This document shows, in pieces, positions 3,059-26,121 of a DNA stretch of 26,121 nt. The stretch lies in the IMG/VR virus record IMGVR_UViG_3300021082_000470, positions 1 to 26,121 of that record; one strand, written 5' to 3'. The notes beneath the pieces are model-generated. The model was not told where the DNA came from, did not search any database, and was given only the letters and a program-made list of their open reading frames with translations. Every line of letters begins with the position of its first letter. Positions within the stretch are counted from its first letter, which is position 1. This DNA comes from a virus. Lineage: Duplodnaviria; Caudoviricetes. Made by a program: the position numbers and the translations under genes.

Positions 3059-4224
3059 TCGCCGGGATTCCGCTTGAATTCAGGACTGGGTTCGAACGTT
3101 GGGGGCTGGACGTGTTCGGAAGTTAGGGGTGCAGTAGCCGACAGGAACTGGTAGAAGCTGCCACCCTTCTCCTTCGCCATCGTCTTAGCCCGTTCCAACC
3201 ATTGTATTGCTTCCTGGACACCCTTCCGCGCAGCCTGTTCAACCGTAACCCCGTGCCAGCTACAGCGACACTGGTAATCCCACGGTGGGCGGAGCTTCTT
3301 GAAGGTTGGGTCGTCAGCTCGATAGATGTTCGTGCTGTTAAGGCCCAGCTTCTCCAAGGCCATATGCTCCTTGCGTACCCGAGCGTCTGCCGTTGCGTGG
3401 TAAGCGACATAGGGGAAGTGGTCACTGACTAGCGGATTGGCCATTGCAGCAGCTTGCCCATCGCTTAGGGCAGCAGCAGTGTTAGTCCGGAAGACGTTCT
3501 CGAGGTGAGGTTCGCTGAAGGTGTGTTCCTCGAGCTTGGTAATCACCGTATCGATGAACTCGTCTTTGTTGGTTCCTTTCTGTAGAGCTTCGGCAAGTAA
3601 GTCCCGGACGACTTGGGCTCCCTTCTCAGTGACCTCTTTATGGGTAATGGCAAAGGAGCCGGTATGTACTTTCTCCGCTGTGTCTTTGTAGTTGATACCA
3701 ACAGCAGCTGGCTTCGACCGGAGAGTCTTGACGACATTGTCGAGTACGGGTAGGTGGACAGTTTCGGCTTCCACAATCTCCGGTCCCGATAGGGCGGGGA
3801 GAAGTTCCTCAACCGGCGGGATGGAGGTATCAACTAGGGCCGCAGAGTCTGGCTCGGGGGTCTCAGCAACCGTGTCGGCGATGCCTTGGAGAAAGCTCGT
3901 GTAAGTAGCCCGAGTTAGGTCCGCTTGGATAAGGGGGCGGAGAGCTAGGATCTCCTTCTCCATCAACCCGGCTAGGGTGCCATGGGTGACAGTTTCGGCG
4001 CTGGTCTTAAGAGCACGCAGCTTCTCAAGGGTTGCTTTGAGCTTAGAGCTGGTTCCCTTGAGGATGAACTCCCTTAGCCGCTTGACATCGTCGTGCTCTT
4101 CGAAGGAGACAGCCTCTCCGAACTGCAAGGTGTCCTCGTCCTGATCTTCATCGGCGTGCATGAAGACAGTGGCTTCGGGATCTTCTTCGATGAACCGTCT
4201 GCTACGGTCACTCAGTGAAAGCAT
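3055..4224 (-). CDS. MuF / SPP1 gp7-like head morphogenesis (minor head) protein
   Basis: Phage_Mu_F-type motifs NVFRTN, YHATADARVRKEH, PPWDYQCRC; directly follows the portal. Likely start is ATG 4224 (MLSLSDRS). Confidence 0.9.
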   Translation of the reverse strand: MLSLSDRSRRFIEEDPEATVFMHADEDQDEDTLQFGEAVSFEEHDDVKRLREFILKGTSSKLKATLEKLRALKTSAETVTHGTLAGLMEKEILALRPLIQADLTRATYTSFLQGIADTVAETPEPDSAALVDTSIPPVEELLPALSGPEIVEAETVHLPVLDNVVKTLRSKPAAVGINYKDTAEKVHTGSFAITHKEVTEKGAQVVRDLLAEALQKGTNKDEFIDTVITKLEEHTFSEPHLENVFRTNTAAALSDGQAAAMANPLVSDHFPYVAYHATADARVRKEHMALEKLGLNSTNIYRADDPTFKKLRPPWDYQCRCSWHGVTVEQAARKGVQEAIQWLERAKTMAKEKGGSFYQFLSATAPLTSEHVQPPTFEPSPEFKRNPGE

Positions 4225-7200
4225 GGGCTTTGATCTCTCCGGTTGGCTCGCTTGTGATTTCCTCGAGGTCAACAACCATGTGGACCTGCTTGTGACCGAT
4301 CTGCACTTGTTTGGCTACGCCGACTACCTTGTACTTGACGCCCTTACGAGCAATGACTTCTCTCTCATCGCTGTGGCCGTCGATTCCTTCAATGGCAACA
4401 CCGGTCTTGATAGCCATTCGATAGAGGACGGGGGTGTCACCGTGAGCGAAGCCTTCAGCCGCTTTCTTGTTGGAACGAGAGGTACAGCTGCTGCACTTGA
4501 ACTGGACAGTAGAGCCAAGAGTCTCTAGGGCAGCCCACTCTTCTGTTCCGGGAGTTATGTGAGAGACACCGCGATATACTATGCCTTCGTAGGATGGGGC
4601 TTTGGCCAGTTCCTTGTGCAGATTATTCATAGCTGTTGGATCACCCTTAGCTGCACCCCTCTTTACTACCCCTAGCTCGGCCATACGAATGTCTTTGGCT
4701 GAGCCTTTCCACTTATGGAAGGGGCTGCTAATGTAGTTGTTGGAGGCAACGAAGTTCGCATGCTTCTCGGGGTCGTGCTGATGCCCGGTATTGATCAGAG
4801 ACTCCATCGTTGAGTTACTTTTGATCGCCACACGGTGGAAGTGGGGGGCACTGTATCCAGGGCTGGGCTTGAACTTGGAGACGTGAGGAGTGTTATCCGT
4901 TGGCAGGTTCTGAATCTTCTCGTTCAGCTCCTTGCTGATCATTTTCTTGGCAGCTTGCTGACCTGCTAGAGCCTTTTCGATGTCGCTGATCGGGAAGTTC
5001 CACAGCTCTTTGACGGAGGCGATCCCTAGAGCCTTGAACTTTTTCAAGAAGTGGACGTTGGTGTTGATCTCGGAGATTGCCTTGTCTGGGAAGGCTGCCT
5101 TGATAACGTTCAAGTCAACGCTGTTCTTGGGGACCAGTATCTTGGTGTTGTCTTCACCGTGGTTGAGGTAGGCAATCTTCTTGATCTGCATCGGGTTGAG
5201 CTTGCCACTCAGCATTCCCGCCAGCTTGTTAATCCGGTCTTGAACTGTTTTCCCGAGGAAGGACTTGATTCCGGTTGAAGAGACGGGCTCGAGGCTGGGG
5301 ACTGGTGCCGTTTTAGGTGCGAGCTCTGACCCGTTGGGGCCGTACATTTTCTCAAGCTTGTCCAGGCGGGCATGGAACACCGGGTCGTCGCTAACTGCCT
5401 TGAGCTTGGTCTTGTGTTTGAGGATCTCTTTGGCCTGTTCAGCCACGTCAGCGTCGGTTATGTCCTTGAAGATGACACCAGCTTGTCCCTGATTCCGCAT
5501 GCTTTGCAGTTCGGTCAGGTTCTCGTTCCACAGGCTGCCCTTTGGCATGCCTTTGGCCCGGTACGCTGTAGCTCCACCGTTGTCGATTCGCCAAGGTGTT
5601 CCGTTCTTATCAACGAGAATGTTGTCTTGGTTTTGGCCAATGACGTCCCAGTTGGCGAGCAAGGCATCGGCTACAAAGTTCTTGCCGAGCTTGGCGATGA
5701 CAGACTTCTTCTCATCCCCGCTTAGGGAACCTAGCTGCTTGCCTTCGACGTGCGGGCTGAGGAGGAAGGTCTGGTCACCTTCTTTGTGGATTGCAGAAGC
5801 GGGTGCCAACACACCCATGACGCTGTACAGCTTGTTGGTCACCGCTTCGTTGAGAATTTGCCCGAGGTTAGCTCCGGACTTCTTAACAGCCTTAGACCCC
5901 TTGCCTGTTGTAACTAGCGTGGCATTGGAAGAACCCCCTAGAGTCTCGACGTGAGTGAGAGGCAAGTAGGGGTGGGGTTGATCCTTGCCTTCTTTGGTTT
6001 TCTCAACCAGTTCGTCAAACTCTTTCTCTGTCAGGTTCTTCATGACAGAGGCGGGGATGTATTCCCCACCTTTGTAGAAGACCCCACCGATGGTAACACC
6101 ACCGGGAGGAGCATGCTGGTGGTTCTTGACTTCATCTAGTTGAAGAGGTTGGCAAAAGGGGGCGTAAGACGCCACCTCCTCTGCATGCTGGGAACCAAGG
6201 ATCTCGAGATGGTCAAGGTCGAAGTTGGGATGCCGATTCTTCCCGCCGATTACCATCTTGACAGTCGCAACCTTGGAACCGCCAGTTGTTGGCCTTGGAT
6301 AGATATGGCTGATGATTCCTTCAGAGCCGTGCAGGCGTGCTGCGGTTGGCTTTACACGGACCTTGTGCCCGATCCGGTGCGGTGGATCTTTTTCATCAAA
6401 CTGAGCTTGTCCCGTCAGCCTGATGGGATAATGTTCTCGCAGCTTGTTGCTGAAGATCATCCGGTCGAAGACAGCAACCTTGCCCTCAAGGTCGTTGAGC
6501 CGCTGGGCATAGTAAGCCCCCCAGCCGGGCTTGACGTAGGCAACAGTGATGTGGGGATGGTACTCAGGGTGAGTCTTGGTATGTGGCTGCTTACAAAGCT
6601 CTTCGTGCAGAGCGTGAAGCCCCTTGCTGATGACGTCGATCTTAAGAACGTCTGGCTTGCCTTCTTCGCCGTGGAAGCAGGTGCACGGTCCAAGCTGGAT
6701 GGCGATTGGGGCTAGAGCTGTGACTTGTGGCTCGAGGCTGTCAGCCGAGTCAGTGTGCAGACCGAAGAGGACGGTGACGTGTGGCTGGTTCTCTCGCTCT
6801 ACAAGGTGCTCGGCGTCGATTCGATGGCTTAACTGCCACACATTCCAACCTAGTTCGGAGGGGAGGTTGAAGAGGCAACATGAGAACTGGTGCTTCTCTG
6901 GCTCGGGTGCCGGCTCCTCACTGTGCTGGGATGCCGCAGGCTTCTCCTTGGTCTTCCCGAGGATCTTGTAGTGTGTATTGTTGACAAAGCCAGTGTAGTC
7001 TGCTGTGTTGTGAAAGGCGGCAAGGTGCTTGGCTGGGATTGTGAACTTGTTTCCTCCAAGCACCTTGCCCTTGTACTGACGGACTGCTTTGTGAAAGTGT
7101 TTCAGACCTTCGTGGGCGAGAGTGCCTGGCTCAGCAGTGAACATTCCGTTATAGGACTCACCAAACTGCTCGGAGTGTTGTGAGCTGTGAAGCCCATTGC

Positions 7201-8626
7201 TGTGCAAATAGGCTTCTATCTCATGCTTTGAACTTCCGCTGCTGACGTACTCTCCCTTGTGATAGTGGTTCCAATCACCACGAGTTGAAGTCCCTATTTC
7301 GTGATCTCCTTTCTTGTAGCGGTGTTTGTCAACTTTGGTGAATCCGTGCTTGCCCAGGATCTTACTAACGCTGGGTACATCCTCTGCAAACTGCTGTTGC
7401 TGTCCCTGAACCTGCAACGGCTGCTGACCTTGAACTTGTCCTTGAGCGGGGGAGCCAATTGCAGAGCCGGCCATTGCGCTGCCGCTGGTGTCCTGCGAGA
7501 AGGACTCGACGAGGGAACGGGGTTGGATCTCAAACTCAACGTCTCCACCCCAATTGAGCCAGGCACAGGGACGCAGGACTTGCTCACAGACACATTGGAC
7601 AATCTCCGCCAGCTCTTGGGTGCAAACGGAGAGAACGACGAGGAAGGGGATGCTGCGGCCACTGTATCCGCTACCTGTATCCGAGGCTTTGGCGACCTCG
7701 ATCGGGACGTCTGCCCCGTACATGATATTCTCGTCGCAGTGCTGAACCCAATCAAAGATTTGGGAACCGCCCGATACATCCTGGGGAGGGGTGTAATCGG
7801 TAAGAGGCTTGCCGTTGGAATCGAGGAGGCGAGGCAGGGTGAGGGCACCGCCGCTTAGCCGGTTCTCCCCGATCTCCCGCAGCATGTCTCGCCATGGAAG
7901 CTGGGTTCCGTCGGGAAGGGTGACCAGCATGTTGGGCGGATACCAGAAGATGTCGCCGATGTAGGCATCTTTGGTCATCCGGAGTTGGAGAAGTCGCTTG
8001 GCGCCATGGTCCATCCACTTCTCGTACCAAGCCGGATAGGAGCGGCGGAGACAGCCTGTGCCATAGGGGCTGCCGAACTCAGCGTTGAAGGTCAGCCACA
8101 ACGCCTGTGGGAAGTACATCTGCTGGCCTTTGATTCGCTCCCCAACTTGCCGACCACCTGCCTCGAGGGCACGAGCGTCTTCCGGGGCGAACTCCTTGCA
8201 GCCGTTGATGACGAGGAGGCCAGTTCGGTCTTGCTTATACAAGACTTGGAGAGGGTTGAATCCCCACCGCTTGGCATTGGTGAGCTTGGTCCGGTGGTAA
8301 TCCCACAGGAACTTCCACTGCTCCTCGACCCACTTCTTGACGATTGGGTTCTTGGCCGTGACGATCACCTCCGCCGGCATCAGAGCGGCGTTGCGGACGT
8401 TGAGGCTGAAGTTGACGATCGGGTCAGAAGTCAGCATCATCCGGCCGGTCCAGAGCCGCCACTGTGGAAGCTGGGTAACGAACAGCTCCCCATAGTATGT
8501 GAACCGGGTGCTGTGATAGTCCCGTGTGGGATCGGTTCCGATCAGCTCGGACTTGATTTGCTCCTTGCCCTTGCGTCGGCGAGTAGCTGGTCGGCCGTTG
8601 GCTGTTCCGTTATTTGTTGCCATCAT
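4208..8626 (-). CDS. Portal protein (Mu gp29/DUF935-like) fused to His-rich domains, 2H phosphoesterase, SH3-like domain, atypical kinase and ADP-ribosyltransferase
   Basis: First ~375 aa are portal-like (DPIVNFSLNVR, NAKRWGF, GSPYGTGCLRRSYPAWYEK, EQVLRPCAWLNWG) and the gene precedes MuF. Downstream catalytic motifs: HVTV/HITV; DALLANWD/RIDNGG; YRG/SCTS/ERE. Confidence 0.85.
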   Translation of the reverse strand: MMATNNGTANGRPATRRRKGKEQIKSELIGTDPTRDYHSTRFTYYGELFVTQLPQWRLWTGRMMLTSDPIVNFSLNVRNAALMPAEVIVTAKNPIVKKWVEEQWKFLWDYHRTKLTNAKRWGFNPLQVLYKQDRTGLLVINGCKEFAPEDARALEAGGRQVGERIKGQQMYFPQALWLTFNAEFGSPYGTGCLRRSYPAWYEKWMDHGAKRLLQLRMTKDAYIGDIFWYPPNMLVTLPDGTQLPWRDMLREIGENRLSGGALTLPRLLDSNGKPLTDYTPPQDVSGGSQIFDWVQHCDENIMYGADVPIEVAKASDTGSGYSGRSIPFLVVLSVCTQELAEIVQCVCEQVLRPCAWLNWGGDVEFEIQPRSLVESFSQDTSGSAMAGSAIGSPAQGQVQGQQPLQVQGQQQQFAEDVPSVSKILGKHGFTKVDKHRYKKGDHEIGTSTRGDWNHYHKGEYVSSGSSKHEIEAYLHSNGLHSSQHSEQFGESYNGMFTAEPGTLAHEGLKHFHKAVRQYKGKVLGGNKFTIPAKHLAAFHNTADYTGFVNNTHYKILGKTKEKPAASQHSEEPAPEPEKHQFSCCLFNLPSELGWNVWQLSHRIDAEHLVERENQPHVTVLFGLHTDSADSLEPQVTALAPIAIQLGPCTCFHGEEGKPDVLKIDVISKGLHALHEELCKQPHTKTHPEYHPHITVAYVKPGWGAYYAQRLNDLEGKVAVFDRMIFSNKLREHYPIRLTGQAQFDEKDPPHRIGHKVRVKPTAARLHGSEGIISHIYPRPTTGGSKVATVKMVIGGKNRHPNFDLDHLEILGSQHAEEVASYAPFCQPLQLDEVKNHQHAPPGGVTIGGVFYKGGEYIPASVMKNLTEKEFDELVEKTKEGKDQPHPYLPLTHVETLGGSSNATLVTTGKGSKAVKKSGANLGQILNEAVTNKLYSVMGVLAPASAIHKEGDQTFLLSPHVEGKQLGSLSGDEKKSVIAKLGKNFVADALLANWDVIGQNQDNILVDKNGTPWRIDNGGATAYRAKGMPKGSLWNENLTELQSMRNQGQAGVIFKDITDADVAEQAKEILKHKTKLKAVSDDPVFHARLDKLEKMYGPNGSELAPKTAPVPSLEPVSSTGIKSFLGKTVQDRINKLAGMLSGKLNPMQIKKIAYLNHGEDNTKILVPKNSVDLNVIKAAFPDKAISEINTNVHFLKKFKALGIASVKELWNFPISDIEKALAGQQAAKKMISKELNEKIQNLPTDNTPHVSKFKPSPGYSAPHFHRVAIKSNSTMESLINTGHQHDPEKHANFVASNNYISSPFHKWKGSAKDIRMAELGVVKRGAAKGDPTAMNNLHKELAKAPSYEGIVYRGVSHITPGTEEWAALETLGSTVQFKCSSCTSRSNKKAAEGFAHGDTPVLYRMAIKTGVAIEGIDGHSDEREVIARKGVKYKVVGVAKQVQIGHKQVHMVVDLEEITSEPTGEIKAHAFTE
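4235..4720 (-). other. R-S-E clade ADP-ribosyltransferase domain (VIP2/Alt-like) at the portal-fusion C-terminus
   Basis: YRG (4568-4576), SCTS (4478-4489), ERE (4358-4366) in canonical order and spacing; boundaries approximate. Confidence 0.85.
5345..5950 (-). other. Atypical (PI3/4K-, HipA-, CtkA-like) kinase domain in the portal fusion
   Basis: LGGSS loop, VKK lysine, NE glutamate, DALLANWD (5645-5668), DNIL, RIDNGG (5573-5590); boundaries approximate. Confidence 0.8.
6420..6890 (-). other. 2H phosphoesterase domain (Acb1/T4 gp57B- or LigT-like) in the portal fusion
   Basis: Two HxT motifs: PHVTVLFG (HVTV 6770-6781) and YHPHITVAY (HITV 6542-6553), 76 codons apart. Confidence 0.85.
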
Positions 8627-8906
8627 TCAGCTCTTCGATCGGTTTTACTGTGACTTGCTTTGGGTCTCCAGCTTCAATGCGGAAGTCCCAGTAAGGGTTG
8701 CCGTATGAGTCTCGCATGTTGGGGAGACAGATAACGGTTCCTTGTTTGATTTGCTCAGCTATGTTCTGAGCTACTTTTTGTGCCAAGACAGGGATGATCT
8801 CCTCACCTCCGTGTCCTTGGAAGATCATACCCGCCGGGTAGAATAGGATACCAACACCTTCAAGCGGTTTGTCACCTTCTTCAAGGATCTTCGGCATCAT
8901 GGACAT
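8610..8906 (-). CDS. Hypothetical protein (98 aa)
   Basis: ATG at 8906 overlaps the TAA of the start-less upstream frame (TAATG); 3' end overlaps the portal start. Confidence 0.7.
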   Translation of the reverse strand: MSMMPKILEEGDKPLEGVGILFYPAGMIFQGHGGEEIIPVLAQKVAQNIAEQIKQGTVICLPNMRDSYGNPYWDFRIEAGDPKQVTVKPIEELNDGNK

Positions 8907-9190
8907 TATTTCACCATTGCAGCCTTCTCGTTGAACCACCGTTGTGACTTAGCCTTCTCGGCCTGCTCTACGCTACCCGTGCGGACTAGGACCGCAGTGT
9001 ACAGGCCATCCTTGGTAGAGGGATCTACTAAAGCGTGCTGGTATTGTAGCTCCGCGAGAGTGTACGGTATATTGGCAGCCCAGCATTGCTTGAGCTCGAT
9101 TGCCCACCCTAGGTAATCGGCTGGGATTCCAGGGTAGGCTGCGGCAAGGAGGCAATCGAGCTTCGCTGTTCCCGGATTTTCTCCAGGGAT
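8906..9190 (-). CDS. Start-less -1 frame ORF; putative frameshift extension of a tail assembly chaperone (lambda gpGT-like)
   Basis: 94 sense codons open in the -1 frame relative to 9109..9459 (...LAAAYPGIPADYLGWAIELKQCWAANIPYTLAELQYQHAL...RWFNEKAAMVK*); no ATG/GTG/TTG until the last three codons; stop is coupled to the next ATG. Confidence 0.6.
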   Translation of the reverse strand: MPGENPGTAKLDCLLAAAYPGIPADYLGWAIELKQCWAANIPYTLAELQYQHALVDPSTKDGLYTAVLVRTGSVEQAEKAKSQRWFNEKAAMVK

Positions 9191-9459
9191 TTATTGCCGA
9201 GAGCCACGATCACTTCGTGAAACTCAAAGGCCTGGCTCTCGAAGACCTGGTCTTCTGTGACTTGATTCTCAGGAGTGCTGAAGAGCTTGGCTAGGTACTG
9301 CCTGATCTTACGCCAGCGGGCTTCTTGATTAGCTTCCGTCTCGCACTCCCCGAGGAAGCGGCGAGCAGCGAACACATCGACCACAGCCGCAACCCCGTTC
9401 TCCCCTTCTAGCAGCAGTGTTGCTGGCTTACTGAGTTTGAATGTTCCGTTATCGCTCAC
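9109..9459 (-). CDS. Putative tail assembly chaperone (116 aa)
   Basis: Helical-looking small protein with a Ser/Pro-rich tail overlapping a start-less -1 ORF, as in G/GT pairs. Confidence 0.55.
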   Translation of the reverse strand: MSDNGTFKLSKPATLLLEGENGVAAVVDVFAARRFLGECETEANQEARWRKIRQYLAKLFSTPENQVTEDQVFESQAFEFHEVIVALGNKSLEKIREQRSSIASLPQPTLESQPIT

Positions 9460-9472
9460 TGTTGCCCTTTCG

Positions 9473-11287: not shown

Positions 11288-11292
11288 TGGAG

Positions 11293-12741: not shown

Positions 12742-12750
12742 TGACTCACA

Positions 12751-13490: not shown

Positions 13491-13526
13491 GAATCTAACT
13501 CCTCAAGGGAGATTGTGTCGGGTCAG

Positions 13527-13829: not shown

Positions 13830-13830
13830 G

Positions 13831-14505
13831 TTAGTAGGTGTGGTAATGAGTGCCGTGGCTGTATCCGTGTTCTTGAGCCAGCTTGTGAAAGGCGGCTAGG
13901 TTCTTATGGGGCACAGCAAACCCGCCACGACTGTCAGAATCGCCTCCGTGCTTGCCAACCAGCGTGTGGAACTTCTCTGTGTCAAGACCATTACCACCTT
14001 CGTACATCCCATGGGCGAAGTCTTTGCTGTGGTGCTCTTTCAAGAACTTGGACCGTTGTATTCTTGGATCGTCTGGATTAGCCCGATTAGCTTCCTCATG
14101 CTGTGTCACTGTCTCCGGCTGCATCAACACCGGGGGAGCAACGGAGCCTGCGTCGGAGAGGCGGGACTCGGCTTCGGAGAATTGGTGTTCAGCGAATTGG
14201 TCATCTCTAAGGTGTGGTTCTGGAAGTTTGGCTTTTGACTTGTTATGCTCGTCCATAACCTTGTCGTTGTGTCTAAGGACAGAATGCCAGAGGTGGTGCT
14301 TACCCTCATCAAATGACTTCCTTGCCTGTTCTTCGCTGCCACCGGTGTGGGTTCCGTACCACTGGCCATGTTTGTATCCGGGAATGGTGCCTGGCTTGTG
14401 AGGTGTGCGATGCACTTCCCAGCGGTTATTGGGAGTAGCCAGCGAGACGTTTAGATTGTATAGCAGCTTGTTTAAGCCGCTTTTGGAGACTTTCTTTAGG
14501 CCCAT
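13831..14505 (-). CDS. His-rich putative internal (cargo) polyprotein, 224 aa
   Basis: Likely start ATG 14505 (MGLKKV), 4 nt after the upstream stop; 23 His; QFAE, QFSE and QHEE motifs; C-terminal shared His-rich domain. Confidence 0.75.
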   Translation of the reverse strand: MGLKKVSKSGLNKLLYNLNVSLATPNNRWEVHRTPHKPGTIPGYKHGQWYGTHTGGSEEQARKSFDEGKHHLWHSVLRHNDKVMDEHNKSKAKLPEPHLRDDQFAEHQFSEAESRLSDAGSVAPPVLMQPETVTQHEEANRANPDDPRIQRSKFLKEHHSKDFAHGMYEGGNGLDTEKFHTLVGKHGGDSDSRGGFAVPHKNLAAFHKLAQEHGYSHGTHYHTY

Positions 14506-15100: not shown

Positions 15101-15754
15101 TTAATAATGATCGTGTACCGAATAGTGATCACCATGGGTGAACCCAGACGCCTTGGCATCCTTGTGAAAGGCTCTAATACCTTCCTTCGGTATGCCGAAA
15201 TGCGTGACGTTTTTTCCTTCCTTATAGTCTTCAGCGTGTCTGTCTAACAGGTCGTGAAATGTGTGCTTGTTTCCCTTGCTGTGATGAAACGTGCCAACAA
15301 AGTGTGTAGAAGTATTCGCCTTCTCCGCATGCTGGCTGCTGACAGGAAGATACTGGTTTTCCGCGACCAGCTCTCTCGCCCTCTCCGATGTTACGTGGGC
15401 AGCATTGAGCTGGCGGGTGTCCCGGAGGTCTTCAGTCTCTTCTTCATGCTGAGAAGACTTGTAGCCTATGTGATGTTCCTGGGCGTCAGCCATTGCGTCT
15501 TCCAATGAGGAATGGAGAGCAGCACCCACTCTGATCCCTTTCCCCGAGTACTTCATGACATGTGTGGAAGGCTTGCCGGTCTTATAGATGACGTCCCCTG
15601 GGGTCTTCATTTTCTCAATGCTGTAGTTGAGTCCCTTACTGCTAGATGCTTTGTGCACCTCACGACCTCGAGCATCGTACCCTTTCTGAAAGTTCAGGCC
15701 GTCGGAGGATTCGGAGTGCTGGGACACAGGCTTGATGTCTTGGGGTCTTGACAC
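15101..15754 (-). CDS. His-rich putative internal (cargo) polyprotein, 217 aa
   Basis: 21 His; QHSE, QHEE and QHAE flank two small domains; contains scaffold-like HVTSERARELVAENQYL; C-terminal shared His-rich domain. Confidence 0.75.
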   Translation of the reverse strand: MSRPQDIKPVSQHSESSDGLNFQKGYDARGREVHKASSSKGLNYSIEKMKTPGDVIYKTGKPSTHVMKYSGKGIRVGAALHSSLEDAMADAQEHHIGYKSSQHEEETEDLRDTRQLNAAHVTSERARELVAENQYLPVSSQHAEKANTSTHFVGTFHHSKGNKHTFHDLLDRHAEDYKEGKNVTHFGIPKEGIRAFHKDAKASGFTHGDHYSVHDHY

Positions 15755-15756
15755 GG

Positions 15757-16943: not shown

Positions 16944-16944
16944 C

Positions 16945-17238: not shown

Positions 17239-17329
17239 CGTGACTCTCCCCAGAGAGGACGGAAACGGCTATTCAGTCCATTTTAGCCTGTCTTGCGTCG
17301 CCGCTAGCCTGCTTGGAGTCCTTCACCTG

Positions 17330-18123: not shown

Positions 18124-18126
18124 TTG

Positions 18127-18405: not shown

Positions 18406-18617
18406 GCGCCGCTCTTTCTCCGGGCTGGGAATATAGGGGCTCGAATCGGGTCTTTCTCCGCGCCCTCGAGAGCTTCTACTCTCGTCTGGAGCTCCACAAG
18501 GGCTGTTTCCAGTTGGTGCTGACGGTCGTTCTTGAGGGTGATTCGAGCCATGAACCAACAGCTTAAGAGGTTCGCCGCCGTGCATACCATCAAGATGTAG
18601 AATGTCCATTGATGCAT
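18402..18617 (-). CDS. Small membrane protein with coiled coil (71 aa)
   Basis: GGAGG upstream; N-terminal TM then LETALVELQTRVEALE. Confidence 0.65.
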   Translation of the reverse strand: MHQWTFYILMVCTAANLLSCWFMARITLKNDRQHQLETALVELQTRVEALEGAEKDPIRAPIFPARRKSGA

Positions 18618-18622
18618 TCAAA

Positions 18623-18889
18623 TTAGCCTCCGCCTCCTTCACCACTGCCCCCACCTCCATTATCACTGCCTTGTAGCTCTGTAGCAGCACAGGCTCCCTC
18701 CGCCACTCCTTGCCAGCCAGCTCGGTAGTTGGTATTCGCCACCGTCACTTGGATTGCGTTGGATGTCCCCGAGCCGCCAGCGTAGAGTCCGGCTGGATCG
18801 CCAAGCTCGTCAAACACCTGAACGTCAACCGAAGACATTGGTGGCGACGTCTCACCAGACTCTGGCCAGCGGAATGAGAATTCTGGCAC
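18623..18889 (-). CDS. Small hypothetical (structural?) protein, 88 aa, Gly-rich tail
   Basis: GTG 1 nt after the gp36-like stop; fills the gap. Confidence 0.6.
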   Translation of the reverse strand: MPEFSFRWPESGETSPPMSSVDVQVFDELGDPAGLYAGGSGTSNAIQVTVANTNYRAGWQGVAEGACAATELQGSDNGGGGSGEGGGG

Positions 18890-18890
18890 G

Positions 18891-19412
18891 CTAGAGGTTC
18901 CCTGGCAGGTCTGCCTTGTGCCGTTTGCGGTTGCCTACTGGCTCTTGACCCGTGCTCTCTTCCACAACGACTCGGATTGGATTGTCGAGCTTGTGGATCT
19001 CAGGTCGGAAGTTGGTGACTGTAGGGGTGTGGTCGAAGCTGGGAGGCTGCTCGGGTACTTGGAAGCGACCCCAACGAGCCTCACTTAGCTGGTCCCGGTA
19101 AGTCTGCACCGAGTCGATGACACTGGCGGGAGGAACATTGCCCCGACGGGCGAATAGGAAGAAGGCTGCAATATTGGCGTTGCACCACTTGCACCAGGCG
19201 TTGCTGGCTGCCATCAGGGCCAAGCTGGCAGTTGAGTACTGGTTGCAGAGAGCGGAATTCATCTCCACCGCAGCTCGCTCAATAGCCCTGGTGATGTTAA
19301 GCGTCTCTTCGGCACTTTCTACCCCGTCAACATTGTCGTCGATATGCGCCAAGACGCCAGCCTCGCTCATGAGGGCTTCGACGTCAGCACGGACGCAATA
19401 GGTTGTAGTCAT
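18891..19412 (-). CDS. Mu gp36-like (DUF1320) head-tail adaptor
   Basis: YC...DV N-terminus, ITRAIERAAVEMNSAL...Y, WCNANIAAFFLFARR pattern; located after the capsid genes. Confidence 0.8.
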   Translation of the reverse strand: MTTTYCVRADVEALMSEAGVLAHIDDNVDGVESAEETLNITRAIERAAVEMNSALCNQYSTASLALMAASNAWCKWCNANIAAFFLFARRGNVPPASVIDSVQTYRDQLSEARWGRFQVPEQPPSFDHTPTVTNFRPEIHKLDNPIRVVVEESTGQEPVGNRKRHKADLPGNL

Positions 19413-19418
19413 TGGGAA

Positions 19419-19790
19419 CTAGGTCTTGCCGACCATTGCGGCTTCACCGTCTGCACTGGACATGATTTTGATGAAGCCGAAAGGTGCGATCTTTGTCACG
19501 TCCAAAGCTGTCCACTTGGAGGCAGGGAGCGTGACTACACCGTTGGTGCCGATGTTATCGACCAGCACAAAGGTTCCGTCCGCTGCCTCAGAGGCGTGAA
19601 TTGTAATCGTTGTGATCGTTGCACCGGGCTTGACGGCGATGTACGTGAATTCTCGGATGTCCACTACGTCACAATCGCCTAGAACCGTGTCGGTGTGGAA
19701 GGTGGTGAGAACACCATACCGAGGCTTGACGGCCATCGCTCCGTCGCTGCCGGTAGGGGGATTCAGTTTGGGGGTGAGTAGTCCGGCCAT
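19419..19790 (-). CDS. Small beta-sandwich-like virion protein (123 aa)
   Basis: Alternating beta pattern (ITIHASEAADGTFV, FIKIMS). Confidence 0.65.
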   Translation of the reverse strand: MAGLLTPKLNPPTGSDGAMAVKPRYGVLTTFHTDTVLGDCDVVDIREFTYIAVKPGATITTITIHASEAADGTFVLVDNIGTNGVVTLPASKWTALDVTKIAPFGFIKIMSSADGEAAMVGKT

Positions 19791-19793
19791 GGA

Positions 19794-20219
19794 TTAATGT
19801 GGTTGGTTGAGGATTTCTTTGGCCCGTTCCGGTGACACCGGTTGGACTTCGTACTCGGAAAATTGGAGCCCACTAAGAGATGGCTTGATATCTTCTTCCA
19901 GCTTCTCTTCATGCTGGGTGTTGTCCTCGTCGTGGACCTTGATCTTGACCCAGTGGTGAGAGTTGTCTTTTGCCCCACCACCACCCTTGAAAGGCTTGTG
20001 TTCGGTACCATGGTCAACAACTGTGTGCTTGATGCCAGCAGCGTTGAGAGCCTTGGAAGTTTTCTCGGCGTGGTGGCCAGAATTCAGTCCATGTGAGTAA
20101 TAGAACTCACGGCGAAGGATGTGGTGCCCGCCACTGAAAGTATGTTCAGAAGGATCAGAACTTGGCTGGTCTTGGCCATACAAGGCTTGGTTAATTGCCT
20201 TCTTGTGTTTCGCAGCCAT
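19794..20219 (-). CDS. His-rich putative internal (cargo) protein, 141 aa
   Basis: 15 His; QHEE and QFSE precede a C-terminal VSPERAKEIL motif shared with the scaffold; TAATG coupling. Confidence 0.75.
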   Translation of the reverse strand: MAAKHKKAINQALYGQDQPSSDPSEHTFSGGHHILRREFYYSHGLNSGHHAEKTSKALNAAGIKHTVVDHGTEHKPFKGGGGAKDNSHHWVKIKVHDEDNTQHEEKLEEDIKPSLSGLQFSEYEVQPVSPERAKEILNQPH

Positions 20220-21136
20220 TAGGTGTCTCCGCCGTTGATCCAGGTGACTTGGATAGTGCCGTTGACCACAACCGTTGCGTCGCCGTCGATGTCAGCAGCG
20301 GCCACACCGAGGTTGAGGAAGAGGTCGATAGGTGTTGTGCGGCCGTCTAGGATCGCCCCGACTTGGGCAGCAGCGATGTTAGCGAGGACACCAGTGACGA
20401 CAGCAGGGGCCGTGTTGATGACGGTCGAGGAGGGGAAAGTCTTGACCGCTTCAGCACTGCCCGGCATCATGTTCATCATCGTCGTGGCTAAGGTCAACGA
20501 CGAGGCGGTGACGCTGCCGATCCCGATTGAGACCGTAACCCCCGACTTGAGAGTTGTTGCGATGACCGAGGTCGTTGTAACTGCAACACTGACCACCGTG
20601 TCGATAAAGCGGAGACGACCGGCTGGGAAGTCATACAGCTTAAGGCCGACATAGGCCAAGGCGTCGGTGATTGTCAGTGGAGTGTTGACGAGGGTGAGTA
20701 CAGTGCGGCGGAAAGAGCCCGAGCCGCTCTCCGAGGCGGTGACACCAATTCCGGATACAACGGCACCTACTGTGTCAGCAGGGGTGGTGGCACCTGCGTT
20801 GAGAATCTCCAGCTTCTCGTGATTCCAGCGGAGAGTGCCGCCGACAGGGATCTCAGCCTGGATTCGGGGGTAGCTGGTGCTGCTGATCACCTTCTTGACT
20901 GTTGGGGTAGCTACCGCCGTGTCGGCGTTGTAGATCGAGATCTGCTCGATATCCTTCTGCTCACCCGCCCCTGTCAAAAGAGTGGCAACGGTGACGCCAT
21001 TCAGCTGCCCTACCTCTTCACTGAGACCGTTGGCCCCTCGCCATAGCACACTGTAATAGGGCTGAGTCGTAGCCGGAGCACCTGCCAAGACTGCGGTGAG
21101 AGATTGAGTTGAGTCTTTGAGAACGGCTATGGACAT
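20219..21136 (-). CDS. Two-domain beta-rich virion accessory protein (305 aa)
   Basis: GGAG RBS; Thr/Val/Ala-rich; jelly-roll-like C-terminal half (KLYDFPAG...IDLFLN...GTIQVTW). Confidence 0.7.
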   Translation of the reverse strand: MSIAVLKDSTQSLTAVLAGAPATTQPYYSVLWRGANGLSEEVGQLNGVTVATLLTGAGEQKDIEQISIYNADTAVATPTVKKVISSTSYPRIQAEIPVGGTLRWNHEKLEILNAGATTPADTVGAVVSGIGVTASESGSGSFRRTVLTLVNTPLTITDALAYVGLKLYDFPAGRLRFIDTVVSVAVTTTSVIATTLKSGVTVSIGIGSVTASSLTLATTMMNMMPGSAEAVKTFPSSTVINTAPAVVTGVLANIAAAQVGAILDGRTTPIDLFLNLGVAAADIDGDATVVVNGTIQVTWINGGDT

Positions 21137-21250
21137 GTATTTTCTCCAAGGTAGAAGTAGTCCAAGGGCTGGTCACTAAACACCACTGCCGATGTAGTGA
21201 TTACCCATGCAGCGACTTCAAATAGGGGTTTCATGGCGGCGCGAACCTGA

Positions 21251-21637
21251 CTACTTGTTGTCCTTGTTTGCGTTCTTGCCGGCCTTGCCTTCCAACACCC
21301 CCTCAGCGTGGCTGGCGTCGGACGTCGTTTTCAGCAGCTTAACACTCATCGAATTCGTCAAGTTGTGTGTCTCGACCTGGAGCGCGTAGGTCTTGGATTG
21401 GTAGTACAGAACCGCCGCCGTCATCAGTGGGCCAAGGAACGCCAGAACGAGAATCAGCACTCGCTCTATGGATGCCTGCTTTTCCTTGGTCGCAGCTGCA
21501 ACGGCAGTCCGATCTTTATCTTCCTTGTCGCTTCCAGCCTGCCGGTCTTTATCTTCCCGCTTCTCTTCGGCTGCGGCTTTGAGCGCATCAGCGGCTAGTC
21601 TGGCACGGGTTTGTTCGGGCGTTTCGTAGTCGGCCAT
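21251..21637 (-). CDS. Single-pass membrane protein (128 aa)
   Basis: GGGAG RBS before ATG 21637; charged N-terminus, TM VLILVLAFLGPLMTAAVLYY, then HNLTNS...AEGVLEG. Confidence 0.7.
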   Translation of the reverse strand: MADYETPEQTRARLAADALKAAAEEKREDKDRQAGSDKEDKDRTAVAAATKEKQASIERVLILVLAFLGPLMTAAVLYYQSKTYALQVETHNLTNSMSVKLLKTTSDASHAEGVLEGKAGKNANKDNK

Positions 21638-21677
21638 TGTATCTCCCAGCCAAGGGAGTCTAGGAGGCATGTGCAAA

Positions 21678-21737
21678 GGGAGTGGGAAGGTAATGAGGCT
21701 CCCCACTCCCCAAGGGCCAACACCGGCGAAGGTGTTG
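21678..21737 (-). other. Two intergenic hairpins
   Basis: Perfect inverted repeats 21678-21686/21702-21710 (9 bp) and 21718-21724/21731-21737 (7 bp). Confidence 0.5.
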
Positions 21738-21763
21738 TCAGAACATGGTTTGGGGACTGACGG

Positions 21764-22318
21764 CTATTTGTTCTCCGCCTTGGCTTCCAGTTCGGCCAGA
21801 CGCTTCTTCGCGGCTTCCTTGACAGTGGGGCGGGTGTCGCAGTCAGCAATGTCTTGGAGCTTGTCCTCGCTTCTCATGTTGGCGATGTGGGGAATTGCCT
21901 CCTGAGCCGCCATGTTTTTCACAGGCGACTCTTTGTCGGCGATGTCCTTGCCAGTAGCGGCATCCTTGACGGCATGCACCGGCGGCTTCGCAGCTTCCGT
22001 ATCCGTCTTGACCGCGGCGGTATTGGGATTGTTGACCGGGTCCTTGGGGAGCTCGTTGGCCACAGCCTTGACACCAGCCTGGAAGCCTTCGACAAACTCC
22101 TTGGCAGGGGGCTTGTCTCCGGTCTTCGCAGCCACATAGGCACTGATCTTCTCCATCGTGCCTTGTGGCATTTCCTTGGCGGCAAGGACCAAGAACTTCT
22201 CCTTGTCCGCACCGCACTTGTCCCCGATCGCTCGAAGTGCGTCCAACTTGGACTGCCCAGTGCCAGAGTCTTTCAAGTGCTCCAGCAAGTTCAGAACGTC
22301 CGGATGAGTCTTCGACAT
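21764..22318 (-). CDS. Hypothetical protein after MCP (184 aa) with small C-terminal helical domain
   Basis: Strong GAGGAGG RBS (22323-22329) before ATG 22318; C-terminal DTRPTVKEAAKKRLAEL. Confidence 0.75.
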   Translation of the reverse strand: MSKTHPDVLNLLEHLKDSGTGQSKLDALRAIGDKCGADKEKFLVLAAKEMPQGTMEKISAYVAAKTGDKPPAKEFVEGFQAGVKAVANELPKDPVNNPNTAAVKTDTEAAKPPVHAVKDAATGKDIADKESPVKNMAAQEAIPHIANMRSEDKLQDIADCDTRPTVKEAAKKRLAELEAKAENK

Positions 22319-22366
22319 ACGACCTCCTCTTACACACATAATGGATTTAACAACCAACGTTGCCTA

Positions 22367-22396
22367 ATTATAGCCCAGGGCTACACAGAAAGACAA
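22367..22396 (-). promoter_or_regulatory. Candidate sigma70-type promoter with overlapping palindrome
   Basis: TTGTCT (22396-22391), 18-nt spacer, perfect TATAAT (22372-22367); palindrome TAGCCC-N-GGGCTA at 22371-22383. Confidence 0.5.
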
Positions 22397-22418
22397 GGCT
22401 CAGAGAAAATCCCTGAGC
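22387..22418 (-). terminator. Candidate intrinsic terminator/attenuator after MCP
   Basis: GCUCAGGG-AUUUU-CUCUGAGC stem (8 bp, one G-U) followed by an interrupted U-rich tract CUUGUCUUUCU, 10 nt after the MCP stop. Confidence 0.5.
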
Positions 22419-22428
22419 TAGCACCGGT

Positions 22429-23547
22429 TTATGGGGTCACGTCGGCGTTGAAGATAGCTCCGGGGATGTACAAGGCAGGGAAGCCATTGTGCACGTGGTT
22501 GAGCGTCCAACCCGAAGGATTCCAGTTGGCATAGCCGTAGGCATAGTAGCCATGCCGGAAGGCACGCACGCCGTTCGGTCCTTCGGTGATCACTTCACCA
22601 CCGTTGAGGTACTGGCACCAGTCTGGCGACGGGGTGGGAAACATCGTGACCTGGTCGTCGGCTACCAGGGTCGTATCAGTGGCAGCGTTCGACACCCACA
22701 CTTCGAGCGAGTAGTCCACGATGTGCCATTGGAACCAAGGCAGAGCACGCAACACCGCCGAGAAGCGACCCGGACCTTGCCGTACAACCGACTCGAACGG
22801 GGTGTTCGAGGTTCCGGCCTGTGCCTTGATCTTGTCGTTGTTGAGGAGGTACTGCCAGGTGTTGCTGTTGAGCACACCGTGTTCCAGGCCCATACCCGTA
22901 AGAGCGTTGCAAGCTAGGTTGGCAGCGTACACGTCGCCGGGGATATCCGTACTGGCCGTTGCCCAGCTAGCCCCGATGATTCCGTTCAGCTGGTTCTTGT
23001 TGTTGGCCGGGATCTGGTAGTCGATCGTGTCCTGACCGCCGGAGAAGCCATGCTTCAGCTCGTCACCTTCTTGATCGAAGGTGTAGGAGCCACGCATCAT
23101 GGCAGCCGTCTGAAACTCGATCAGGTTGGCAGCGGCTTCGGCCAAGTACCGCTTCTGCCGCATGAGGTAGTTCTCCCCCATGCTGTCGATCACGGTAACA
23201 GCCTGACCGATCTGACGACGGTTGACCATATCCTCGTCGGTGAGCGGGATGCTTTCCGCCACACGGGGAATGGTGAACCGAACGCGACCAGCCTTCTGGG
23301 GCTTGACTTGAGTGTTCTGAGTGCCAGGCACCGTAGCCGTGGCAATGCGCCGAGTGCGGTTGAACACGTCGTAGCTGCCCTCACGAAGAGGGTAGTCGAT
23401 CATGTTGCCGCTTTGGGCGTCGGGATTGCGGGCTGCTAAGCCCCACCCGAACAGATCGGAGAGAACGGTTCCGGGGAGCTGAACCCGGCTGACCTCACGG
23501 AGAATAACTTCCGGTGCCAGAAGCTCTTGAACTGAACGGCCAGCCAT
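22429..23547 (-). CDS. Major capsid protein (HK97 fold, lambda gpE/Phage_cap_E-like)
   Basis: 372 aa; follows the head decoration gene; IEFQTAAMMRG, IDYQIPANNK, WATASTDIPGD, GFPALYIPGAI patterns; AAGAGG RBS at 23558-23563. Confidence 0.9.
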   Translation of the reverse strand: MAGRSVQELLAPEVILREVSRVQLPGTVLSDLFGWGLAARNPDAQSGNMIDYPLREGSYDVFNRTRRIATATVPGTQNTQVKPQKAGRVRFTIPRVAESIPLTDEDMVNRRQIGQAVTVIDSMGENYLMRQKRYLAEAAANLIEFQTAAMMRGSYTFDQEGDELKHGFSGGQDTIDYQIPANNKNQLNGIIGASWATASTDIPGDVYAANLACNALTGMGLEHGVLNSNTWQYLLNNDKIKAQAGTSNTPFESVVRQGPGRFSAVLRALPWFQWHIVDYSLEVWVSNAATDTTLVADDQVTMFPTPSPDWCQYLNGGEVITEGPNGVRAFRHGYYAYGYANWNPSGWTLNHVHNGFPALYIPGAIFNADVTP

Positions 23548-23776
23548 AAAGATTCAACCTCTTAGTTTGGGACTCGAAGTTTGAAGTGGACTCAAGTCCA
23601 CAAAGTTGCCCTTGTTGCCTGCTTTCGCAGACTGATGTTTATTCACCGAGGTTTTCCGTCTCTCGATAAGACGCATATCAAAGCCACCAGCACCGACCCC
23701 GCCACTCTCTTCCACTTAGACCCGCTCCCATTTGGCGTTCAAGAAGGGCCGATGCTGGTGGGTTGTTGTCCATGGC
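23548..23776 (-). ncRNA. Structured intergenic RNA / MCP leader (class unknown)
   Basis: 16-bp stem 23684-23699/23746-23761 with two G-U pairs only on the sense strand; GUCUGC-GAAA-GCAGGC hairpin (23617-23632); GUGGAC-UUGA-GUCCAC hairpin (23586-23601). Confidence 0.5.
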
Positions 23777-24577
23777 TTACGCTGACACAGGCACCGTACC
23801 GCCGGTCAAGACGTACCACATGAGAGTGGCACCGTCCGTACCGTAATCCGCATACATCAGAGCCGTGCCGCCCATCTTCTTGTTCGCCGTCGAGAAGGTG
23901 AGGGTCGTGCTCACAGCACCACCGGCGTCTCCGTACACGATCGTATTGGCAGCGGCGGTGATCACCATGCTGGCATCGACACCGTTGTACAACAGCACGC
24001 TGTAACCGCGACCCACTGTAGCCAACGTCGGCAGGGTGAAGTTCACCGCGTTGGTAATCGCGATGAACATGTCACCGTGGTCGGTGTCTAGCAAGGTGTA
24101 GTCGGCGGTCTTGAAGTACCGCTTCCGAGGCGCCAAGAGGAAGGCAGATCCGTGTGGAGTCGGACCGACCATCTTGAAACCGGTGCGAAGGAGAACAGCC
24201 AGCGAAGCCTTGTCTTCGCCGTAGATCTCGCTTTCGGCCTTGATGATACCGCCGGTCAGCACTTTGGTGAACTTGTCTTCGGCCGTTCCGTCACGGTCCA
24301 GCATCGACAAGTGCATCGGCAGGATGCCAATAGCGTTTTGCGTTCCGTCGTTGGCATCGGCATCATACAAGTAGCCCAACCCATCCGAGTCCTTGAGAGC
24401 CATGATGTTGCCACCACGGATCGTCGTTGTCAGGTTGGTGTTGCCCGCGTCGGTGATTGACGACTTGAGAGTGACCTTCTCGAGAAACTTCCGGTGGTTG
24501 TTGTCTGGGCCAGTGGCCAGGAACTGAACCTCTTCAGTTTCCTTGAGAGCTGAAAATCCAGGCTTGCTTTCGGGCAT
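23777..24577 (-). CDS. Head decoration protein with C-terminal fibre-like domain (266 aa)
   Basis: Between scaffold and MCP; gpD-like TIRGGNIMA...YDADANDGTQNAIGIL; C-terminal KTADYTL...VNFTLP; AAGGA RBS. Confidence 0.75.
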   Translation of the reverse strand: MPESKPGFSALKETEEVQFLATGPDNNHRKFLEKVTLKSSITDAGNTNLTTTIRGGNIMALKDSDGLGYLYDADANDGTQNAIGILPMHLSMLDRDGTAEDKFTKVLTGGIIKAESEIYGEDKASLAVLLRTGFKMVGPTPHGSAFLLAPRKRYFKTADYTLLDTDHGDMFIAITNAVNFTLPTLATVGRGYSVLLYNGVDASMVITAAANTIVYGDAGGAVSTTLTFSTANKKMGGTALMYADYGTDGATLMWYVLTGGTVPVSA

Positions 24578-24699
24578 CGTATCTTTCCTTCGTAAGTCCT
24601 AGCCTTCTTCCCTATCTCGACTCTCTGGGGAGAGTTGCTACGGTTGTCGGGTCGTCGGCTAGGATGTCTCCGGGTTGTCTGCTGTGTGCAGGCTGAGTG

Positions 24700-26121
24700 C
24701 TATGAAAGGGGGTTGGAGCGAGGGTTCGCCGGGTTGTATCGCCCGCCGGGGAAGTTCGTGCTCATAACTTGGTTTGGGTGCTTGGCCGTCTCGTTGGCGA
24801 CCATCTCGCTGACTCCGAGGCGAGGCTGGATTTGGGCAGCAGTCTGAGCGAGATAGGCGTTGGTTCCGACTAGCTCTCGAGCACGTTCGGGGCTGACATG
24901 CCCCGGTCCGATGAAGTCACCCTCTTCGAAGAACTGCTCGGGCTCGTTGGGTCCGAAGATGGGCTTGCCATCCGGACCTAGGGTAATGTTGCGGAAGGGG
25001 GGCGACTTGCTGTCCTCGATCTGAGACGTGTTGAGCACTTCCTCGAGGAACTGGAGGCTACGAGGCATTGCAGAGGCAACCATCTCGGCGACTTGGGCTG
25101 TCGTATAAACGGGTTGCTCTTTCTCCTCGGCGAACTGAATCACAGACTTGCCGTCTTCCGTCGGGTTGAGATCGGAGAGCAGCTTGACTCGCAGAGAGGG
25201 TGGGATCTTGGCTGTGCTGATAGCCGTTACCACCTTGTCCCGAGCGGCATTGTTCTTGGCTTGGGCCTCGGCAAACTGAGCGGCCTTGGTGTACGTTTCA
25301 GCCTTGGCCTTGGCTTCCCGTTCAATGACGAGTGCACGCTGTCCGGCTTCGATTGCTGCTCGAGCCTTGGGAGACAGGGCTTTGAGCTCGTCTTCGGAAA
25401 ACTGGAGCTGGTTATGTTCTTCGTACTGCTTGTCGATGTTAGGCTTGTGAGCCTCGTTCGTCATTGTGTAGTGCTTGCCGTGCTTAAACCCAAACAAGTC
25501 AGCTGCTTCATGGAACTTTTGGGCGTGTTCCGGATCGACGGCAAAGTGCCCAGAGTTGTCACCCCGTACACCCACAGAACCGTGTCCGTGGTGTACGACC
25601 AGGTGGTTGAACTGCTGGAACTTTCTGTTGCTCTTTAAGGGCTGGAACGTTCCGAGGTGGTGCTCTTTGCCAGCGAACTGGGCGCTGAACTTTTGGGCCT
25701 CTTCTTCGCTGAACGGCATGCTCGTCTCCGTTACTGGGGGACTCTCCTCCTTGTCCTCGGCTTCCTTGGCTTCGTTTTCGGCTTTGGCCTTCACCGCGGT
25801 ATTGATTCCGGTGAGGAGGAGGTCGATGGCAGTGTCGGAGCTGATGTCAAAGTCCGAAGGGAGGACTACGTTGAACTGGGCTAGGCCAGCGACGACAGCG
25901 GCCAGCTTCGACTTGTCCGTTGCAGCCGGAGGAATGTCCGGGTTGTTGGTCAGTGGGTCTTGGTTCGCTGGAGGAGACTCGGGGATGATAAGGTCGGTGG
26001 GAGGTGTTGCCTCATACTCTGCATCGCCCGCTTCGGGTGTTGCCTCGGCGTCGTTCTCGGGGTTGGATGGGTCGGCGGGACGCTTCTTCTTTTTGGAATC
26101 GCCTGCACCGAAGTCATCGTG
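24700..26121 (-). CDS. Scaffold / C-terminal part of protease-scaffold protein (5'-truncated)
   Basis: Frame is open 109 codons upstream of the ORF-track start to the window edge (HDDFGAGDSKKKKRPADPSNPEND...); acidic Pro-rich and coiled-coil segments; directly upstream of decoration and MCP genes. No protease domain is visible in the window. Confidence 0.75.
   Translation of the reverse strand, partial: HDDFGAGDSKKKKRPADPSNPENDAEATPEAGDAEYEATPPTDLIIPESPPANQDPLTNNPDIPPAATDKSKLAAVVAGLAQFNVVLPSDFDISSDTAIDLLLTGINTAVKAKAENEAKEAEDKEESPPVTETSMPFSEEEAQKFSAQFAGKEHHLGTFQPLKSNRKFQQFNHLVVHHGHGSVGVRGDNSGHFAVDPEHAQKFHEAADLFGFKHGKHYTMTNEAHKPNIDKQYEEHNQLQFSEDELKALSPKARAAIEAGQRALVIEREAKAKAETYTKAAQFAEAQAKNNAARDKVVTAISTAKIPPSLRVKLLSDLNPTEDGKSVIQFAEEKEQPVYTTAQVAEMVASAMPRSLQFLEEVLNTSQIEDSKSPPFRNITLGPDGKPIFGPNEPEQFFEEGDFIGPGHVSPERARELVGTNAYLAQTAAQIQPRLGVSEMVANETAKHPNQVMSTNFPGGRYNPANPRSNPLS

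Follow-up and report, generated by a model that had tools for sequence, protein, structure and literature searches.

The window analysed here is a single 26,121-base virus record (IMGVR_UViG_3300021082_000470; Duplodnaviria; Caudoviricetes) whose structural genes lie on the minus strand, and in which six proteins repeatedly carry the four-residue tag Q-[F/H]-x-E. This tag is probably cut, just after its Glu, by the phage's own head protease, with cargo thereby freed inside the capsid, a reading to which we assign a probability of about 0.65; that the tag is a protease site, with the cut at either of two positions, is very probable on comparative sequence evidence. An initial annotation of the window had put forward a prohead protease site, and the proposal now draws support from a protease domain in the full-length form of one tagged protein, from avoidance of annotated domains, and from the scarcity of the putative site in related scaffolds that lack the protease.

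Occurrence of the tag in the window

The 31 open reading frames (ORFs; 8,443 amino acids, aa) contain 20 copies of Q[FH]xE. Shuffling within proteins, repeated 5,000 times, yields 1.47 copies on average and never more than 7, so that the pattern search with shuffling suggested in the initial annotation confirms the enrichment and a chance origin of the tag can be rejected. QF.E (12 against 0.75) and QH.E (8 against 0.71) head the list of all gapped triplets tested, in that order, and post-hoc choice of the pattern therefore does not explain the excess. All 22 sites originally listed (the 20 copies plus the variants QLDE and QYEE) lie on the minus strand in frame with the six named ORFs, and their confinement to these proteins is borne out by a six-frame scan of the window, in which all 21 stop-free Q[FHY]xE words fall within them. 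The absence of the tag from the other 25 ORFs is true as claimed, but not significant by itself (0.6 expected), the signal being the enrichment. The QLDE variant occupies the position of QFDE in the relative L004, directly before a C-terminal cargo common to both. The tag-bearing proteins and their parts are as follows:

24700..26121 (-), protease-scaffold fusion, C-terminal 473 aa, cut off by the contig end (match to P0032)
Scaffold sites (-), from the translation: QYEE 25417-25428, QFSE 25393-25404, QFAE 25267-25278, QFAE 25126-25137, QFLE 25042-25053, QFFE 24925-24936
25417..25662 (-), module B in the scaffold, about 80 aa, His/Lys-rich, of no family, ending in QYEE (profile E 1e-9)
24835..24921 (-), scaffold C-terminal helix H-V-S-x-E-R-A-x-E-x-V, which would bind capsid protein by analogy with the herpes scaffold (PMC8537868)
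19794..20219 (-), p141, stand-alone protein of 141 aa; QHEE 19905-19916, QFSE 19854-19865
19812-19838 (-), weak copy of the scaffold helix at the C-terminal end of p141 (profile E 0.004)
15101..15754 (-), p217, stand-alone protein of 217 aa; QHSE 15710-15721, QHEE 15440-15451, QHAE 15323-15334
15356-15400 (-), copy of the scaffold helix in p217 (profile E 1e-6)
15104-15304 (-), module B in p217 (profile)
13831..14505 (-), p224, stand-alone protein of 224 aa; QFAE 14188-14199, QFSE 14173-14184, QHEE 14092-14103
13834-14019 (-), module B in p224 (profile)
7382..8626 (-), portal core (Portal_Mu above cut-off), then a Gln-rich linker and QFAE 7382-7393
7169..7381 (-), module A in the portal tail, 71 aa, His-rich, ending in QHSE; QFGE next at 7157-7168
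6917..7156 (-), module B in the portal tail, ending in QHSE (profile)
6392..6916 (-), 2H phosphoesterase module ending in QFDE (PF13563 above, Acb1 model below cut-off)
6179..6391 (-), 71-aa module ending in QHAE, without Pfam match, presumably KOW/SH3-like (a label given by eye only); QLDE next at 6131-6142
4208..6130 (-), C-terminal portal cargo of 640 aa without internal site, 41% identical to the L004 cargo
3055..4275 (-), MuF minor head protein, whose acidic N-terminal leader ends in QFGE 4114-4125

Codon usage at these sites varies and conservation is at the peptide level, as first noted: the 20 Q[FH]xE sites have 20 distinct 12-base codings that use synonymous codons. This diversity tells against a reading of the tag as a scar of module shuffling at the DNA level, a recombination site or duplicated linker of no function in the protein, which we regard as very improbable; modules A and B are indeed copied among genes with the tag at their ends, but sites in the non-mobile scaffold core also keep their place across 154 proteins, and those at homologous positions in the proteins P0103 and P0152 change together.

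A putative head protease fused to the scaffold

Pfam, PHROGs and NCBIfam offer no name for the protease-scaffold or for the three small proteins. The ORF initially called a scaffold does carry tag sites, but it is the C-terminal part of a protease-scaffold fusion left open at the contig end. The full form is known from P0032 (750 aa), which equals the window scaffold at 471 of its 473 residues and has an N-terminal 277 more; the protease domain and two further sites (QFDE and QHAE) are known from this protein and lie beyond the window contig. A model of the domain built from three close relatives (L001-L003; predicted local distance difference test score, pLDDT, 79) gave 62 BFVD matches at E<=0.001 with template modelling (TM) scores up to 0.67, and those with names are mostly prohead proteases or scaffold-protease fusions. 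Foldseek found no match to it in the PDB at E<=0.001, the best being pseudorabies assemblin (E 0.004) with other herpes proteases and T4 gp21 lower (E 0.004-0.04), and a sequence search of the PDB with protease profiles returned no match. The N-terminal domain thus models as a head protease of the herpes/T4 type, with the assemblin fold. Its putative catalytic residues, to judge from their spacing, are His49, Ser106 and His134, kept in all 47 close homologues and in 115, 114 and 113, respectively, of 116 distant ones. An affiliation with the Mu-like prophage I protein (PF10123) was rejected, as one of 30 proteins matched, at 16.6 bits against a cut-off of 25.2, and P0032 did not match.

The tails behind this domain are dense in sites. 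Q[FHY]xE occurs 452 times in the tails of 47 close protease-scaffolds against 13.6 expected; all 44 close protease-scaffolds carry 5-16 sites, a number that grows with that of inserted modules, and in 39 of the 44 the first site lies at residues 151-181, just behind the protease (later in two). Modelling of a complex between the protease domain and a 35-aa linker of the portal containing QFAE (score 0.01, mark 0.32) counts neither way. At the upper end of size stands the protease-scaffold P0046 (1,717 aa), in which the tag bounds many modules and Pfam finds no match. A related word, M-P-F-S/A-E (window 25705-25719, minus strand), is kept in 36 of 47 close scaffolds and can be taken either as a Pro variant of the tag or as a nested start codon, with no clear ribosome-binding site before the latter in the four DNAs inspected.

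The tag as a border of exchangeable modules

Among classified proteins of close relatives, 67 of 68 Q[FH]xE words fall in portal, MuF or protease-scaffold proteins; capsid, neck and tail proteins, 12,316 aa in all, contain just one (a tally that counts genes common to L014 and L018 twice). The capsid protein has none, either in the window or in the close relatives tallied. The portal and MuF tails in which the sites lie are wholly different between phages, with 2H, GNAT, DUF5661, zeta-like kinase, topoisomerase IB and ADP-ribosyltransferase (ART) domains. The initial placement of sites at domain borders agrees with their avoidance of Pfam domains in ten portal/MuF-type proteins (0 of 40 sites inside, 10.3 expected), but needs qualifying in that sites also split the conserved core of the scaffold.

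When 65 proteins were cut after each tag, the resulting 394 pieces of at least 35 aa clustered into modules reused across protein classes, namely portal, MuF, scaffold and stand-alone genes. Only 6 of 32 such cross-class modules span a site, where 15.3 are expected (minimum 6 in 2,000 draws), and 14 of the 32 are bounded by sites at both ends against 3.7 expected (maximum 10). Module A, with 27 members, is spread over scaffolds, portal and stand-alone genes; in the window alone there are four copies of module B, in portal, scaffold, p217 and p224. Modelling gives module A a compact helix-five strands-helix domain in which the tag is the least confident, unstructured part (pLDDT under 50, residues 69-71). 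The module A model has no PDB match at E<=0.001, neither module matches a Pfam family, and Atlas searches with both gave no usable match. Identification of module A as a HicA toxin was rejected (one of 12 members at E 0.04, five strands in the model, no PDB match), as was that of the portal 2H module as Anti-CBASS Acb1 (PF23474; 23.5 bits for the whole portal and 26.1 for the excised stretch, cut-off 27), the generic 2H family passing.

Fusions in relatives display further arrangements. At L008:9929-13414, and also in L009 and L010, a portal-2H-MuF fusion has borders R-F-A-E, R-F-E-E and R-F-T-E while the scaffold retains QFAE and QFSE, and by sequence position 1 of the tag appears relaxed in this lineage. 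At L019:9971-16950 the portal and MuF ORFs lie two bases apart and share a split 2H domain, the first part of it closing the portal ORF and the rest opening the MuF ORF; the two may together be a single interrupted portal-2H-MuF polyprotein, with 15 tag sites. At L006:7296-11417 portal, DUF5661, 2H and MuF are fused, and the MuF part has an intein-like insert (Pfam E 3e-5, below cut-off). The stand-alone gene at L022:13624-14229 starts M-K-L-Q-Q-F-D-E, each of its tags is followed by a repeated word K-H-P-R...G-K-F, and the portal fusions of L021 and L008 show a similar word behind their last site.

Which bond is likely to be cut

Position 4 of the tag is Glu in 409 of 485 QF/QH words of the close family (entropy 1.2 bits, against 3.2 at position 3), where position 3 is Ala or Ser in 241 words and otherwise also F, D, T or G. 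At position 3 Pro does not occur; it is depleted at position 5 (3 of 455), and at positions 6-7 its frequency is that of the background. T4 gp21 cuts after L/I-X-E (PMC9026906), and the A-X-E of SPN3US and S/A/G-X-E of phiKZ are likewise cut after Glu (PMC5694885). Fixation of Glu, depletion of Pro at position 5 and these precedents together favour a cut after Glu.

The P1 residue of herpes assemblins is Ala, and the same protease might, to the same end, cut one residue earlier, between the S/A and E of Q-F-S/A-E, with a small P1 of that kind. This reading we consider unlikely. Distant homologues do fix Q-F-S/A and accept E, D, L or A at position 4, and the third conserved protease residue is His, as in the Ser-His-His triad of herpes (PMC4498786); in the close family, however, Ala or Ser occupies position 3 in only about half the words and Glu is nearly fixed, a cut after position 4 leaves an aromatic residue at P3, comparable to the P3 determinant in T4 (PMC9026906), and the same cut gives the clade without Arg a P1 of Ala or Leu.

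That clade is defined by protease residue 133. In a comparison of 97 of the 116 distant proteins (those with short tails, no His134 or no late site being dropped), Arg before His134 goes mostly with Q-F-S/A-E/D sites (48 of 52 proteins; 106 of 117 sites), and Ser, Ala, Gly or Thr there mostly with Q-F-S-A/L (an acidic residue in 4 of 45 proteins; 18 of 126 sites). Arg133 is the best predictor of an acidic fourth residue among 143 protease columns, and in the nested pair P0103 and P0152, which have Thr133, homologous sites have switched to QFSL/QFSA. The co-variation is best taken as a testable lead; it would allow a single mutant to test how assemblin-fold proteases came to prefer Glu or Ala.

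Related loci without the protease

Related loci in Planctomycetota genomes and some metagenome contigs lack the protease domain, any MuF match and the portal tail but have genes for scaffold, decoration, capsid, gp36-like and portal proteins, and thus resemble a natural knockout. Any tag site is found in 2 of 17 protease-less scaffolds, both non-standard, all 17 being complete with at least 600 bases seen upstream; a site in the last 190 aa is present in 146 of 154 protease-bearing scaffolds (99 of 107 distant, 47 of 47 close). A whole-genome search found no protease in any of eight genomes with such loci, and recovered it in both controls (in one only at E 4e-5). Portal identities of 37-48% make Planctomycetota the likely host group.

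These loci bear on the suggestion that the tag is left uncut and serves for docking or capsid targeting, tying proteins to the core during assembly. The ten-residue capsid-targeting sequence of T4 combines targeting with processing, and a variant blocked in processing still targets (PMC9026906); p224 and stand-alone cargo genes of other loci, moreover, have no other evident loading signal. Yet loci with capsid, decoration, portal and scaffold but without protease have nearly no sites, the number of sites scales with that of inserted modules, and docking has no need for a signal between each pair of portal-fused modules. We hold pure docking to be quite unlikely, a combined role in docking and cutting being possible.

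Cutting of the tag by a host protease in place of the phage enzyme seems hardly probable. L087 and L088 do show that protease and canonical tag are separable, but chromosomal protease-less loci of the likely host group, in which a host enzyme would still be present, have lost the tag, and the last tag residue varies together with one in the phage protease. The loci concerned (L087:1847-3082 and L088:933-1995) are chromosomal and have a non-Arg protease, split from the scaffold in L088, with tags worn or absent; they are possible intermediates of protease loss.

Many Pirellulaceae genomes hold a compact capsid operon, as at L070:6368-11029 and 16 similar loci (similar capsid-operon loci are L027, L033, L035, L038, L064, L065, L071, L074, L077, L078, L080-L085 and L089), made up of short protease-less scaffold, decoration, capsid, gp36-like and tail-less portal. 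A terminase lies within the fetched stretch in L069, L070, L075, L077, L081 and L084, and the fetched stretches of most compact-operon loci have no tail or MuF matches. The operon may be a domesticated capsid or a gene-transfer-agent-like element.

Proposed mechanism and cargo

The reading favoured here, cleavage after Glu by the phage's head protease, suggests the following course of events. The shell would assemble on protease-scaffold and portal, enclosing whatever is fused to them. The protease would release itself at its first site, and the C-terminal part of the scaffold would be chopped into pieces of 8-74 aa able to leave. Trimming of the portal tail at QFAE (residues 412-415) and of the MuF leader would release modules A and B, the 2H phosphoesterase and the 640-aa piece, in which an ART-like part lies at about 4277-4528 (weak Pfam match), besides what we take, by eye, to be a kinase-like part. 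Two head proteins have no site and are predicted to stay uncut:

22429-23547 (-), major capsid protein, no site
23777-24577 (-), decoration-like protein, no site

Modules fused to portal, MuF or scaffold need, on this scheme, no separate loading signal, while p217 and p141 would be loaded through their own copy of the scaffold C-terminal helix. A profile of this helix from 39 scaffold C-termini, built without P0032, recovers the helix of the window's scaffold and the copies in p217 and p141. The herpes scaffold binds the capsid through its C-terminus (PMC8537868), and, taken with these copies, this analogy makes loading by mimicry likely for both proteins. The first site lies at residues 12-15 of p217 and beyond residue 100 of p141 and p224.

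Some of the released pieces might enter the host with the DNA, as suggested by the T4 internal proteins and Alt (PMC9026906) and by predictions for portal- and MuF-fused 2H and ART domains (PMC9503650, PMC5512222). The last portal cargo opens, in the window (6050-6130, minus strand) as in L004, L005 and L007/L018, with H-A-P-P-G-G-x-T-I-x-G-V-x-Y-x-x-G-E; the enzymes that follow this word differ among them, and it is possibly an ejection or anchoring signal.

A wider proposal, tentative and open to doubt, joins these elements into a programmable cargo polyprotein system. Tag-ended modules would enter through the protease-scaffold (477-1,717 aa across members), the portal tail, MuF or a copied scaffold helix, and be freed and delivered at high copy as a fast-changing anti-defence kit, with Arg133 versus Ser/Ala/Thr switching between T4-like cutting at Glu and herpes-like cutting at Ala/Leu.

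Several observations weigh against the reading as a whole or against parts of it. Distant capsid proteins keep a conserved Q-[Y/F]-L-E and the first match lies inside the protease domain in 3 of 44 close homologues, so that a match alone does not make a site; the L008-L010 portal borders read R-F-x-E instead of Q-F-x-E, and the junction of the kinase-like and ART parts has no tag site. The fixed part of the tag in the wider family is Q-F-S/A, which would allow the other cut position. As for the protease-less loci, all 17 may derive from a single loss, their scaffolds are shorter and divergent, most genomes searched are incomplete (L070 alone being titled complete), and L087 and L088 have a protease with a scaffold devoid of canonical sites. 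Residue 133 changes only three times on a quick, poorly resolved tree, the link with Arg133 comes down to 1-3 independent pairs and cannot reach significance, and P0140, P0160 and P0117 retain acidic sites without Arg. Finally, the helix profile finds no copy in p224 or in stand-alone genes of other loci, so that mimicry of the helix would not account for their loading.

Comparison with known systems

A head protease that cuts scaffold, portal and cargo at a short tag is already known from T4, phiKZ and SPN3US, and since the principle is established there, the element of surprise is limited. No description of the present tag was found in the open-access literature searched. If the reading is right, sequence alone would suffice to tell which proteins of an uncultured phage family are packaged and processed, candidate anti-defence proteins for injection (modules A and B, 2H, GNAT, ART-like) could be listed with exact borders, and published portal- and MuF-fused effectors would gain a release mechanism.

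Polyvalent proteins likewise place several effector domains on one virion-linked polypeptide, the domains here being the 2H, GNAT, DUF5661, zeta-like kinase, topoisomerase IB and ART types met above. Domains such as 2H and ART fused to portal, MuF or head peptidase have been predicted to be packaged and injected, and for their release the accessible portions of the same sources propose built-in metallo-, HINT or papain-like peptidases, with no head-protease linker code (PMC5512222, PMC9503650, PMC3482391). A built-in zincin metallopeptidase gave no Pfam match in the window proteins, and one weak ATLF-like match was seen in L021 only.

The head module of phage Mu (protease I, portal gp29, MuF gp30, gp36) shares the Portal_Mu and MuF families, which the window proteins match in Pfam at 24.6 bits (PF06074; cut-off 23.9) and 47.2 bits (PF04233; cut-off 29.6). 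The Mu portal loses its last 124 residues, a removal ascribed to protease I (PMC11915804); the portal tail here, in contrast, comprises 1,057 aa of modules, the protease scores below the Mu-like_Pro cut-off, and a cut motif for Mu was not found in the literature searched.

The herpesvirus assemblin precursor pUL26, with its R and M sites, similarly has the protease on the N-terminal side of a scaffold, with a capsid-binding motif at the scaffold's end (PMC8537868), and His49/Ser106/His134 would correspond to His43/Ser109/His128 of the pseudorabies virus enzyme (PMC4498786). Unlike the herpes precursor, the present one has many sites instead of two, a tag ending in Glu, and portal and cargo predicted to be cut; the oxyanion-loop Arg pair of herpes, mapped by spacing only, is Gly-Asn in the close family and Arg-Asn in the distant one.

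With T4 gp21, phiKZ gp175 and SPN3US gp245 the system shares an assemblin-fold protease, a short Glu-ending tag, many sites in the scaffold and, as proposed here, C-terminal self-cleavage, and, as in T4 (gp22 scaffold, IPI-III and Alt), small internal proteins and an ADP-ribosyltransferase-like piece would serve as cargo (PMC9026906, PMC5694885, PMC10052503). It differs from all three in a tag of four residues with Gln and Phe/His/Tyr, in the fusion of protease to scaffold, and in cargo held as modules within scaffold and portal tail with no N-terminal propeptide carriers. The third conserved residue of the T4 protease is Asp, where the present enzyme has His, and the capsid protein here, unlike that of T4, has no site. 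With a capsid protein predicted to stay uncut and, it seems, no general N-terminal targeting peptide, this is, on sequence criteria, not a member of the T4 system; it would rather work like T4/phiKZ/SPN3US head processing set upon a Mu-type portal and MuF, with a fused precursor of the herpes kind.

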